Shown: positions 27,501 to 41,701 of the stretch, in pieces | Layout: every line of letters starts with the position of its first letter | Numbering within the stretch: the stretch's first letter is position 1 | Assembly (NCBI RefSeq): GCF_032062105.1 | Contig: NW_026926978.1 | Location: 1-64,000 of the forward strand | Length of the DNA stretch: 64,000 nt | Direction of reading: 5' to 3' | From: Saccostrea cucullata | Lineage: Eukaryota | Notes under the pieces: model-generated | Databases searched by the model: none | Told to the model about the DNA's origin: nothing | What the model saw: the letters and a program-made list of their open reading frames with translations, nothing else | Translations under genes and position numbers: made by a program

Positions 27501-30029
27501 TCAATCTATCAGTCCAAACTTGTAAACCGTCTTGCTATAGAACTGCTGACCTGGACGGAGAATTGTATCAGGAAAACTTTCCTTCAAAATAGAAAAGCAA
27601 ATGGTAAATTCTAAATTTCAACCTTCTCCTCATTAATATTATTAAAGGTGTATTTTGATCAATGCTGACATGCCGTTTTTAAAAGAGAAAAGTGTTCTCA
27701 AAATATTAAAGAAGTGAATTTGTCGATACAATTCAAGAGTTCGTGCTTTTGGGAGCGAAATACTGAAAACTAAGTATTATTCGCGTCATCTTTTATTTTC
27801 GTGATTCGCCAGATTGATCTATCTTCGACCTACAGAGTAGTAAACATTCTCTACATAAAGGTTTACGGCGATAAATATTCGCGAATTAAAGATAGAAACG
27901 CTGGAGTATTCATCACATGCGAATGAAAGTTGCTTTTCACTTTATACAACATTAATTTATGTACAGAAAACGCCATTTTCTAGCAGTTATATTTGAACGG
28001 CTTTCGCACTGATTTGTCTATTAATTAGATAATAATTTAATAAACAACCAAAGCTATAAAATACATAATTTCTTCTTTTGTTGTGTACCTGGTTGACACT
28101 GTCTGGGTAGTGTTGCGTCTCCAGACAGATGGAGCCGAGTTTCTCGTACACCGCCCCCGCCTTCCCCCGGGTGTGAGGGATCGTGTCCCCTGCAGTGTAA
28201 CACTGCACCCCGGGCTCAGTAGTGTACACATCCATACGGCGGCCCGTGGGAGGGTGAGCTAACCTGGTGAAACGAAATACTGAGAGTAAACCATATAGTC
28301 GAATGAAATTGAATAGGATTAAATGGTTGGAATGAAGGAATAAAATATGCTACAAGACTTGACCGTGCAGAGACAGACTGGTTTAAAGGTAATGGACAGT
28401 TTGAATCACACATACGTGGCTATAAGTCTCAGACTTCCATCAGCATTGGCCACACAGAAGTTGTTGAAATATCCTTTCCCGTGGGGCATCTTACCGAGCC
28501 TGTCTCCCAGTCTGACCGGCTGACGGAGATCATACAGTGTTCCTGTGATGTCACGGATTTCACCTGAATGTAGACATAAGCAAGTATTCATTTATCCTCG
28601 CAGATGTCAAACTTGTCGCCAACGAAATAGACAGAACGTACAGAACAGTCAAACACTTCAAGTAATATTGACTAAAGCTGGTCACAATTTAGAGTGACAC
28701 AATCGCGGAAACTGTTTATGGTTCAACTCACAGCGGAAAAGATAAAAAAAAAAGGCGTCAGTAGAAAATTAGAAAGAGGGCAACTGACTATAGTTAGACA
28801 TATTGCCTGTCTTCAACTTGACTTGACTAGCCACTAGGTGATTGACACATTGCTAAATGCTAATGGCAGCTAGGCTATGTTATAATTCGCGTTCTTAGCC
28901 GCCGTGATCTTGAAAGTTACCTGAAGGTATGTAAATCTCATTTTCCTTGGTAGGTGTGAATTTGTCTGCATTTATCTGTAACACGTGTTCATCTAGGTTC
29001 GGGAAATTCTTTACACAGTAAAGAAAAAATAAAATTATGTTTAAATACATAATTTTCATCTTTAAAAAGCTGACAGAGAGATTTTTATATCCTTGTCTTA
29101 CTTGTCCTGCTAAGTTAAAGTAGGCGTGGTTTGTAAGATTGACAGGTGTTGGTTTGTTTGTGGTGGCGCTGTATTCGATCACTAATTCGTTCTGATTGGT
29201 CAGTTGATATGACACAGTGGTTGTTAACTCTCCAGGAAACCCCTCCTCTCCGTCAGGGCTTACGTATTTCATTTTCACTTTATCATCTTCTATCCACGAA
29301 CTCCAGAGTTGCTTTCATGAAATGAAAATGAAATTTGTTTATTTCATATATACATAAGGATATAATTTTATTAATCATTAAAACATAAGGGACAAATTCT
29401 GAGGGGAAAAAATTCTTATATGTCTCTTTCACTTTTATACTTAAATTTCATTTATTTGAAGAGCTAAATGTTTAGGATATCTACATGTGTAAATGATTTC
29501 TTCCCTCCATGAATGCAATGGTTTCCAAAGTTTTTAGTCACGTGATATTCCTTGCCGTCCAAAGTAAATCTGGCATTGGAAATAACATTGACAACCCTGC
29601 CACATATTGCCCCTAAAGTCAACAGATTCGTCTCGTATTCTGGGAAAGGAATAACATCACTAAAAACTAAGATTACCTTAATTTGTCTTAAGATTTTGAT
29701 AAATATCACTGAGTAAAAATTGTGTCGGGTTACCTTTTACATCATCGTATCCCAGATTGATATCAGATACCACGCCTTGCTTGTCAGGAACCCGGATCTC
29801 TGTGATGACACAGCCCAGCTCAATCACCCGCACAGTGACGTCATTATGGTTACAAAAAGTATACCTGAAAATAATGAATTATTGCAATACTGTTCCTTCG
29901 TAAGATCCATCACTGATATTTTTAATGGAAATACTTTTTTTTAACATTATATTACTACCTGTTAACCTCCCTTCCATCTGTGAGATGTCCAAAAGAATCT
30001 TTTCTAGGTATCACAGGGGACTGACTCAT
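27501..30029 (-). CDS. GALM: Aldose 1-epimerase (galactose mutarotase)-like, paralogue 1 (~352 aa)
   Basis: Exons 29959-30029, 29734-29864, 29485-29639, 29102-29311, 28921-29008, 28416-28563, 28089-28263, 27501-27581; motifs [41 protein letters not shown]; frame intact. Confidence 0.92.
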
Positions 30030-30259
30030 TTTAATTCTCAAGTTTTAAAATTCGTGTACTTCTGCTATCGCCGAGCACGCACACACCCCTACTCAACGCG
30101 ATATCAAGGACCGTAACTCGAACATGCATTTTAATGATAACGATTATCTGTATGTGCATATCGGAAAAGATTGTAGTAGAAAACAACAAAACTAATAATA
30201 ATCTATATATTTTAGATTTATTTGATTTCCTTTTTTACAAACTACTAGGTTTAAAATAC

Positions 30260-38694: not shown

Positions 38695-38999
38695 GTTATA
38701 TATTTGCTAGATTTAGGAAAAAGGTACGGAAAACAGTAAGACAATATAGATGATGAGAAACCCCACAAAGACCCCTGGTATTGTATTCTATAAATGGGCT
38801 TGATGCGTCTTGTATATGTACACATGCCAGATTTATTTTCAAATTATATCACATTCAAAGTTTTTGCAAGTTCTTTTCACAGGTATATCAAACCCATGTT
38901 TCTGTTGTTAAGGTCATAGAAGCAATATAAAAAATGACCTTCTTTAGAAATATATTTTAAGTTTTAATATTGCAAAAAGTAATAAACATTGCATCTGCT

Positions 39000-41701
39000 T
39001 CACTGTGGCATCAGGGTCAATTTATAAATAGTCTTGCTGTAGAACTGTTCGTTTGGCCTCAACACGATACTTGGAAAATTCTCCTGAAATTGACACAAAT
39101 AAAGCTAGATTAAAAGCTTCTTTGGTATTATATATTGTATGGCCAACAAATGCTTTGAAACATACAATATTTTGTGAAAGAAACCATCAAAATTTATCAG
39201 TTGATGAAAAGCCTAATTTATACACTACGTACATGGTTAGGCGAGTCAGGATAGTGTTGTGTCTCTAGACAGATAGAACAGAAAGGTTCGTACACAGCGC
39301 CCTCTTTTCCCCTGGTATGGGGAATGGTGTTACATCCGGTGTATAGGTGCATTCCTGGCTCAGTCGTTTTCACTTCTATTCGTCTTCCCGTGGGAGGGTG
39401 ATCTAACCTAAGAGGAAAACATTGCATCATTAATGTGAACAGATTAATTTGAAATCACAGGGAATTTTAAAGGACGCCACCTTCATTCAAAAGGAAAAAA
39501 AATAATTGTAGACAAATTGAAAGTGGAGGGCTAAGTGTATAAAAAAAATTTTTACACCAGCTGCAAACATTTCGTGTGTGTGTGTGTGTGTGTGTACATC
39601 TATATGTAGTAGTGTCAGATACACTACTTCCTATATATTTTATCTACCATGGAATCAGTATTACTAGTATTAGAGTCTAAATAATGATTTTAAAGTCAAG
39701 CAAAACCTTGAACTCAAATTATGATTTTAAAGTCAAAGCAGGAACGCAACTTATAAATACACAGAAAGTACTATCAAGCCACCCTCTATCCCCAACCCCA
39801 TCCCCGGCTTTGAATGATGTGTTTGTTAGATTTACGTTGCTGCATGTTTGAGGGGTCCTGACTCTCCTAGACAGAAGTTGTGGAAGAACCCCTTTCCATG
39901 CGGCCCATCCTTCAGTCTATCCCTGAATCTCACAGGTTTTCGGAAGTCCCATGGTGTTCCGGCCACGTCACGCAACTCTCCTGAAACGGGAAATGATCGT
40001 GTAATCATAAAAGTGTCTAATTAATGATTCGATAATTGGTAAATGATACATTTATATACATCTTTTTTTTGTTCCAGTACCTGATGGAATAAAGATATCG
40101 TCCTCTTTGTTGACTGTGTATTTTTCTGCATTGATCTGGAGTACATGGTCGTCAATGTTTGGGTAATCCTATATTTACAAAATGTTATAAGTATTCCCCC
40201 TTAAATCCGATCACACTGATATTGCTTTTATTGTAAGATGAATAGTGCATGTCCAAATTGTGGTAAATTTTATATGCAGTGATTACGTACATGTTTTTGC
40301 AAATTAAAGTAAGCGTGGTTTGTGAAGTTCACTATGGTTGGTTTGTTTGTAGTGGCTTTATATTCGATCACAAGTTCGTTCTGATTGGTCAGTTGGTATG
40401 AAACAATAGTAGTTAGCTCCCCTGGGTACCCCTCCTCTCCATCTGGACTCACATACTTCATGTTAACTTTGTCTCCTTCAATCCAAGAACTAAATAATTT
40501 CTGAAAAATCAAAAAAGCAACTGCGTATACATGTACTCCAAGCTTAAAGAGTATGATAAACCAAACTTGTATAGTATAATAAACTAACTTGAGATTCGTT
40601 TGATAATTTTTTGAAAATTATTTAAATTAAAATTTAAAACCAAATTGCTTTCTTTGTTACTAGTAATACATGTACTTTTACAAACTACTGCAGCAATCTA
40701 TATATACTTGTAATTTACCTTTTAATAAACTGTTTTGGGAATGTCGTTTTCATAAAAAAAATAAAGAAGAAAATCGGTGCTTCACACGCTTAAAAGAGCA
40801 TTGCAAATCCGCATATTAACCAATTCGAATTATTACTTGTGTAACTTCCGTTATGCACGCACTCACTCGGATCATTCATTCACTTACACACACAAGGGTG
40901 TTGCCATGTAGATCCCCTCCCTCTTTGTTGCGAGGGGATAATCATAAATGGATGTAAATATAATGTAAGCATTGTTTACCAGGTGAAATCCTTTGACTCC
41001 TCCGTGGATGGCGTGCTTGGGTTCCTCGTTTTCGTAGCTGGAGAATGTGGCCGGGAGTTTGTATTCTTTACCGTCCAGGACGAATTTAGCGTTAGAAATC
41101 ACATTGACGACTCTCCCACAGATAGAGCCGAAACATCTTGGGTTTGGTTCATAGTCTTAAAAATAATTTACATACATTAATCATGATATACTACATGTAA
41201 TACTGAGTGTACCAGTACGCTAAATGGACACCCAATGGATGCATTGAAGTATTTTTACTATAATATTCTAATTTTTAATCTGAAAATAACTATAATTTCC
41301 TACGTAAATATAAAAATTCTATTATTTTTATGCCAGTTTAGATAACAATTATTGACACAAAACCCCATTATCACGGAAATGTTTCTATATTTATTCACCC
41401 TCTATTTTGTCGTATCCGATGCTGATATCCTCTATGTTGCCATCTTTGTCGGGTACCAAGATGTCGGTGATTACACAACCGTAATCGATCACTCTTACTG
41501 TCACCTTATTGTTGTTAGTAAATGAGTACCTGCAAAATTAAAATAAATATTTATGACAGTAACGCGCTGCAGTAGTCGCCTATACAGACAGAATATCAAA
41601 ACAAAGACACCTGAGTTTTTTTTTTCTTACCTGTACACGTCCCTACCATCACTAAGCTGTCCGTAGGAATCTTTTTCCGGAAGTACTGGAGACTGACTCA
41701 T
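39000..41701 (-). CDS. GALM: Aldose 1-epimerase (galactose mutarotase)-like, paralogue 2 (~359 aa)
   Basis: Exons 41631-41701, 41399-41529, 40980-41155, 40291-40500, 40081-40168, 39836-39980, 39233-39407, 39000-39083; same intron positions as paralogue 1; [21 protein letters not shown] present. Confidence 0.92.
39574..39595. repeat. (GT)n microsatellite in a GALM-like intron
   Basis: Direct GT run. Confidence 0.9.

Follow-up and report, generated by a model that had tools for sequence, protein, structure and literature searches.

Two conserved galactose mutarotase-like genes of the oyster Saccostrea cucullata with an altered sugar pocket and a predicted, possibly O-methylated, substrate

Two galactose mutarotase (GALM)-like genes, here called A and B, are located on the minus strand of a 64,000-nucleotide stretch of Saccostrea cucullata DNA (the window; C9115:1-64000 in the 1.17 Gb genome searched). 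In both, the Arg and the Asp of the GALM sugar pocket (human Arg82 and Asp243) are replaced by Val and Phe, and comparison of the proteins indicates that the pair is a real, conserved and selected variant of a known enzyme family, with a substrate that is only predicted. Our preferred reading, held tentatively as a good possibility, is that A and B may be active mutarotases refitted for a less hydroxylated, most likely O-methylated, sugar.

Gene models and pocket residues

Exon models were derived from the window, to which unprefixed coordinates refer.

27498..30029, minus strand: gene A, GALM-like, 352 amino acids, 8 exons (30029-29959, 29864-29734, 29639-29485, 29311-29102, 29008-28921, 28563-28416, 28263-28089, 27581-27498)
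39000..41701, minus strand: gene B, GALM-like, 359 amino acids, 8 exons (41701-41631, 41529-41399, 41155-40980, 40500-40291, 40168-40081, 39980-39836, 39407-39233, 39083-39000)

All introns of the two models are bounded by GT-AG (14/14), intron phases are shared, internal stops are absent, and the proteins are 66.7% identical to each other. Model A is a 100% match to the database protein P0002 (XP_062611280.1, S. cucullata galactose mutarotase-like), and P0019 (XP_062611281.1), of equal length and with the same motifs, is the counterpart of B. A pseudogene or an assembly artefact was ruled out, the genes being intact, spliced and conserved, and no third GALM copy was found in the window. Against PF01263, A and B scored 261 and 253 bits over the whole domain (gathering cut-off 27); against the bacterial model TIGR02636 the scores were 290 and 255 bits (cut-off 398), and an oyster copy that keeps Arg and Asp was also below this cut-off (300).

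The human GALM pocket consists of Asn81, Arg82, His107, His176, Asp243, Gln279 and Glu307, of which Glu307 acts as the base and His176 as the acid, according to an excerpt of PMC11441068; for the Lactococcus lactis enzyme, Arg71, His96, His170, Asp243 and Glu304 are named in an excerpt of PMC5622589. The corresponding codons in the window, all on the minus strand, were located as follows.

29584..29586, minus strand: A Val86, at human Arg82 and L. lactis Arg71 (alignment to solved structures)
41100..41102, minus strand: B Val86, at human Arg82 (alignment to solved structures)
28466..28468, minus strand: A Phe251, at human and L. lactis Asp243 (alignment to solved structures)
39883..39885, minus strand: B Phe258, at Asp243 (alignment to solved structures)
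29527..29529, minus strand: A Phe105, in a loop, six residues before the HGG His (counted on the protein model)
41043..41045, minus strand: B Phe105, spaced from Val86 as in A and followed by a 7-residue insertion (one hidden Markov model alignment has Glu in this column instead)
39347..39349, minus strand: B His294, at human Gln279, where A keeps Gln (counted on the protein model)
29126..29128, minus strand: A His181, equivalent to human His176, catalytic acid, kept (role from the same excerpt of PMC11441068)
28119..28121, minus strand: A Glu316, equivalent to human Glu307, catalytic base, kept (role from the same excerpt)
40315..40317, minus strand: B His188, catalytic acid, kept (exon model)
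39263..39265, minus strand: B Glu322, catalytic base, kept (exon model)

Val86 aligns with the second Arg of human GRVANRI as well as with L. lactis Arg71, and Phe251/Phe258 align with the Asp of human GFDHNF and with the residue altered in the L. lactis D243A entry 1nsm. Of the seven human pocket residues, two are missing from A (R82V, D243F) and three from B (additionally Q279H), and N81, H107, H176 and E307 are kept in both. A first-pass annotation of this DNA, made from the letters alone, had described two intact genes with Arg-to-Val and Asp-to-Phe replacements and with the catalytic His, the catalytic Glu and the HGG His in place. The 8-exon models without internal stops and the identity of A to a RefSeq protein bear out the first point, the alignments to the human and L. 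lactis structures confirm both replacements in both copies, the Val and Phe codon positions proved exact in the rebuilt exons, and the catalytic motifs were present in A and B. Phe105 in both genes, and Q279H with the 7-residue loop insertion in B, are changes beyond those it had listed. On sequence grounds, A and B belong to PF01263 without two defining pocket residues of GALM, and a listing of them among the ordinary galactose mutarotases would be inappropriate.

A structure model of A, built from a 149-row alignment, reached a predicted local distance difference test (pLDDT) score of 97 and showed the GalM beta-sandwich fold, with a template modelling (TM) score of 0.94 and a root-mean-square deviation of 1.2 Å to human GALM (1snz); being led by a deep alignment of canonical proteins, it carries little information on the pocket. 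An earlier model from 12 rows (pLDDT 58) was not used.

Conservation and selection in oysters

S. echinata, Ostrea edulis, Crassostrea virginica, Magallana gigas (XP_011443010/011) and M. angulata all have orthologues of A and B, which makes six species with S. cucullata; the accessions of the two proteins are consecutive in four of the six, and in the remaining two both lie on a single chromosome-sized record. GRVVNVIS and the Phe at the Asp243 site were present in 12/12 aligned A/B proteins, as were the catalytic residues together with N81 and H107. Two quick trees were calculated (65 and 52 rows, the latter with a simpler model), and in the 65-row tree A and B form a clade with support 100, a stem of 0.48 changes per site and tips mostly below 0.15. 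Across species, the A proteins are 80-89% identical, the B proteins 82-97% and those of the canonical neighbour 84-95%.

Between A and B, replacement divergence (dN) was 0.23 and synonymous divergence (dS) 2.1 (LWL85) to 5.5 (maximum likelihood), dS being saturated. Against RNA of a related oyster, 31 codons of B showed a synonymous and 6 a replacement difference (ratio about 0.05, from 40 of 69 listed differences); for A the counts were 13 and 7, respectively (from 21 exon differences among the matches listed), so that A is less constrained than B. The same RNA confirmed all introns of B as joints (7/7) and covered the exons of A, the joints of A not being among the matches listed; read depth over B, a poor measure of expression, was 728 in one run and 13-18 in another. 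The proposal of the first-pass annotation that the pair forms a selected subfamily is supported by the 12 invariant proteins, the long stem with short tips, the low dN beside a dS above 2 and the codon counts of B; the ratio is low rather than near 1 in both comparisons (A against B, and B against the RNA), and both genes are transcribed, judged by the RNA of the related oyster.

Other GALM genes in the genome and in molluscs

Eight GALM places were found in the genome, the same set being returned by searches with two exons each. By tblastn on the fetched stretches, the copy at C17556:584k is fully canonical, and both Arg and Asp are present at C9115:191k and on C598, two copies that hardly differ (branch lengths 0.008-0.009), the 14.5 kb contig C598 being likely an allelic duplicate. 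Since Arg/Asp-keeping GALMs are present elsewhere in the genome, as a check proposed with the first-pass annotation was meant to establish, neither A nor B is required for galactose mutarotation. At C17556:597k, Asp is replaced by Ala, and the copies on C7430 and C7447 are without Asp and without the catalytic Glu (both by tblastn).

The latter copies (CLIPMQ, Asp243 also lost; C7430:148846-158259 and C7447:90397-94429, L017-L020) are conserved in M. gigas, O. edulis and C. virginica at 74-84% identity and are, from their residues, likely pseudoenzymes; a hydrophobic N-terminal stretch of the C. virginica protein P0141 may be a membrane anchor. Their conservation in the same genome lends some weight to the alternative that A and B, too, are weakly active or non-catalytic GALM-fold proteins, serving as sugar binders or in a non-enzymatic role, with Phe251 and Phe105 filling the pocket. 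The loss of 2/7 sugar-contact residues in A and 3/7 in B (residue list from the excerpt of PMC11441068) would fit this, and the GALM fold has been reused in plant NDH-PSI complexes. We nevertheless consider it unlikely: the two His, the Glu and the Asn are invariant in all 12 A/B proteins despite the long stem, whereas the Glu-less clade did lose its Glu, and independent bacterial proteins with Val or Ile at the Arg82 site likewise keep these four residues.

Among 34 tabulated mollusc GALMs, some of which were placed in molluscs by tree alone and some of which may be chimeric gene models, Asp243 is lost in 18 (Thr, Val, Cys, Gly, Glu, Ser, Phe or a gap) and Arg82 in 5. In Littorina saxatilis (P0161, P0308), Arg82 was independently changed to Val, with Cys at Asp243 and Arg at the position of the loop Phe105, as if, from the aligned residues, the guanidinium had shifted to the loop. 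P0055, P0057, P0059, P0072, P0084 and P0346 (abalone, Gigantopelta, Solemya, Mytilus) carry Thr or Val at Asp243, most of them with Leu or Met at Gln279, and a Solemya paralogue has Phe at Arg82. Taken at the level of aligned residues, the A/B pair is a single instance of a GALM pocket that has diversified widely among molluscs.

Rarity of the replacements and independent origins

For comparison, a set of 442 domains outside the oyster A/B proteins was pooled from all searches, and was thereby enriched for Val/Ile forms by the queries used. At the Arg82 site, 426 of these carry Arg and 11 carry Val or Ile (Val in 4/149 diverse representatives), and none carries Phe at the Asp243 site; the A/B combination is therefore not a matter of chance, and Val and Phe are not common in ordinary GALM orthologues; the opposite had been named in the first-pass annotation as a finding that would speak against it. 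None of the contrary outcomes it had listed, as far as they could be tested here, was observed. The uniqueness that it implied is weakened by the loss of Asp243 in 18 of the 34 mollusc proteins.

These counts also bear on the simplest alternative, that A and B are ordinary galactose/glucose mutarotases in which the changes are tolerated and which are kept as a pair for dosage or tissue expression. The database name (galactose mutarotase-like), the frequent loss of Asp243 in mollusc proteins, and L. lactis Asp243 mutants that still crystallise with galactose (PDB titles) speak for it. With Arg kept almost throughout the set, Phe at Asp243 confined to the A/B pair, and the new residues invariant across six species instead of drifting, it is very unlikely.

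At the loop position of Phe105, Asn, Asp or Glu is found in 363 of the 426 Arg-bearing relatives, and Phe or Tyr in 4/426 of these against 8/11 of the Val/Ile domains. On the 52-row tree, Val or Ile at Arg82 needs five changes, namely in the oysters, Littorina, a 7-member bacterial clade, P0281 and P0296/L032, and forcing the oysters and the bacterial clade into a single origin was rejected (approximately unbiased test, p-AU 0.0014). His at Gln279, as in B, occurs in six of the bacterial Val/Ile proteins. Transfer from bacteria was considered and ruled out, A and B nesting among mollusc GALMs and their exon pieces matching other oyster copies, together with the rejected single origin.

Bacterial gene context

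A pattern scan of metagenomes gave three matches, the Val-type GalMs L033 and L032 and a chance match in SurE (L031). The Val- and Phe-bearing gene of L033 is followed directly on the same strand by a gene of the uroporphyrinogen decarboxylase (URO-D)/MtaA fold (5e-15), a B12-binding fragment (4e-7) and a URO-D fragment (3e-5).

L033:1999-5950: candidate locus for methyl-sugar demethylation, partly broken (gene context)

Corrinoid O-demethylases are built of URO-D/MtaA-fold and B12-binding parts. Around ordinary GalMs, galactokinase and the glycoside hydrolase types GH2, GH43 and GH53 were found and none of URO-D type (28 of 84 open reading frames scanned, most loci belonging to one clade). 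A genome scan with P0281 returned 10 loci, none of which was shown to be Val-type (nine with Arg; L022 without a motif match); among plasmids, the best identity was 43% (best 15 of 341 matches), and the ESM Atlas returned only generic aldose 1-epimerase clusters.

Predicted substrate

Under the preferred reading of a refitted mutarotase, catalysis would proceed as in GALM, with Glu taking the C1 proton and His protonating the ring oxygen. Thoden et al. are said to have found in 2002 that Arg71 bonds the C4 hydroxyl of galactose-type sugars; Val86 and Phe105 would fill the space of the lost Arg and create an apolar niche where it had read the C4 (and C3) hydroxyl, into which a 3- or 4-O-methyl group could fit. 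Glucose-type sugars can, reportedly from the same work, bind in a flipped orientation with the C1 hydroxyl near Asp243, for which reason Asp243 would normally meet the C6 hydroxyl. Its replacement by Phe would remove a second hydrogen bond, perhaps at C6, and favour a 6-deoxy sugar or a pentose. Candidate sugars would be 3- or 4-O-methyl mannose, fucose or galactose, released from glycans of the oyster itself or taken up with food, and the Arg/Asp-keeping GALMs would take care of ordinary galactose.

We know of no described fate of freed methyl sugars in oysters. Such sugars are present in oyster N-glycans as Me-3O-Fuc (C. gigas), Me-4O-Fuc (O. edulis), Me-3O/4O-Man, Me-3O-GalNAc and trace Me-3O-Gal, Me-4O-Man is prevalent in digestive tissue, and the O-methyl sugars were modelled to tune norovirus binding (all from excerpts of PMC10301044); methylated hexoses and O-methyl sugars are called typical of mollusc glycans in an excerpt of PMC8699351. 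The oyster's own methylated glycans are as good a candidate sugar source as the dietary algae guessed at in the first-pass annotation, and the methyl-sugar idea gains a lead from one bacterial gene context and the oyster O-methyl glycans. The bolder claim, that A and B might be the first mutarotases dedicated to O-methylated (deoxy)sugars and that the Arg-to-Val and loop-Phe changes evolved separately in oysters and in bacteria with B12-dependent sugar demethylases, appears doubtful to us.

Several observations weigh against the methyl-sugar reading. The pairing of Val with a loop aromatic is not significant once kinship is counted (two pairs in the same direction, about 0.2 in the opposite, p 0.5), Val occurs without the aromatic in Littorina and in P0296/L032, and the bacterial Val/Ile clade keeps Asp243, which the oyster pair does not. 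L033 is a single contig, in which the B12 gene and the second URO-D gene are fragmentary, broken or misassembled, and L032, the other Val-type context, is flanked by pilus and efflux genes, so that demethylase-like neighbours were seen in one of two contexts. A pattern search of 401 + 401 genomes found no second demethylase-like context, and homologues of the L033 URO-D protein were found in 0/251 and 3/401 genomes, those three being without a GalM match at 1e-20. The methyl fucoses of oysters are presumably L-sugars, for which the GALM fold is not known to have a preference, and we are aware of no pathway by which animals make use of O-methyl sugars in free form. Since the Glu-less copies are also conserved (84% identity between species), conservation alone is no proof of catalysis.

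The closest alternative, which appears somewhat unlikely, is that A and B are active but have shifted from galactose to another sugar without methyl groups (xylose, fucose, rhamnose, glucose, mannose or an N-acetyl sugar). The kept catalytic residues and the signs of selection fit it equally, loss of Arg82 would remove what is said to be the galactose-preferring contact, and the many mollusc paralogues that vary at Asp243 and Gln279 are what would be expected if their specificities differed; oyster glycans also contain Xyl, Fuc, Man, GalNAc and GlcNAc (excerpt of PMC10301044). On the other side, it leaves the methyltransferase-fold neighbours of L033 unexplained, and ordinary GalM already takes glucose (PDB ligand titles). 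Xylose and D-fucose are reportedly accepted by it as well.

If the bolder claim of dedicated O-methyl-sugar mutarotases is correct, molluscs would have a hitherto unknown route for handling the methyl sugars of their own glycans, and the mollusc GALM expansion would be an enzyme panel for different modified sugars. A and B could help to show which residues determine the choice of sugar in the GALM fold, and several mollusc proteins annotated as galactose mutarotase cannot be ordinary galactose mutarotases.

Surroundings of the pair

A homeobox gene, which we take to be of HLX/H2.0 type, adjoins B. In Pinna nobilis, contig218 carries an H2.0-like gene, then three GALM-like genes, with a fourth some 120 kb farther along (PMC13745860, Table 6, in excerpt), and from this gene listing the homeobox-GALM cluster may predate true oysters. 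Further features of the window are as follows.

44347-49014, minus strand: homeobox gene adjoining B, homeodomain exons 45109-45375 and 44347-44586
35517-39023: high-copy repeat block between A and B, drawing thousands of reads
14906-16738 (plus strand), 17898-19913 (minus strand) and 22881-24884 (minus strand): long frames of 610-671 amino acids, without Pfam or NCBIfam matches; the latter two look like paralogues of each other
60553-62592, minus strand: single long frame that resembles an inter-alpha-trypsin-inhibitor heavy chain and has VIT and vWA domains
10075-11111, plus strand: reverse-transcriptase fragment in two frames

Comparison with known mutarotases

No published study of oyster mutarotases or of this residue variant was found in a literature search, most subscription journals being outside it, and none of 13 matched sequences of solved entries carries the A/B residue pair. 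Human GALM (PDB 1snz/1so0, PF01263) resembles A and B in fold, at about 41% identity, and in N81, H107, H176 and E307, as well as in Q279 for A; it differs by R82V, D243F and the loop Phe105, and from B also by Q279H and the 7-residue insertion. From L. lactis GalM (1l7k; D243A and D243N mutants 1nsm and 1ns8), the equivalents of His96, His170 and Glu304 are kept, whereas Arg71 and Asp243 are both replaced by bulky apolar residues. The uncharacterised bacterial Val/Ile-type aldose 1-epimerases (P0195, P0361, P0362, P0365, P0386, P0437 and L033, and separately P0281) share Val or Ile at Arg82, the loop Phe or Tyr and the catalytic residues with the oyster pair, and most of them have Q279H; unlike A and B, they keep Asp243, and their origin is separate. 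That the GalM fold can switch its sugar while keeping His, His and Glu is known from the sulfoquinovose mutarotase YihR/HsSQM and the hexose-6-phosphate mutarotase Ymr099c (PMC5902678, in excerpt, and PDB titles). Both families are only distantly related to the oyster pair (11% identity for Ymr099c) and act on anionic substrates; A and B arose inside the animal GALM clade.

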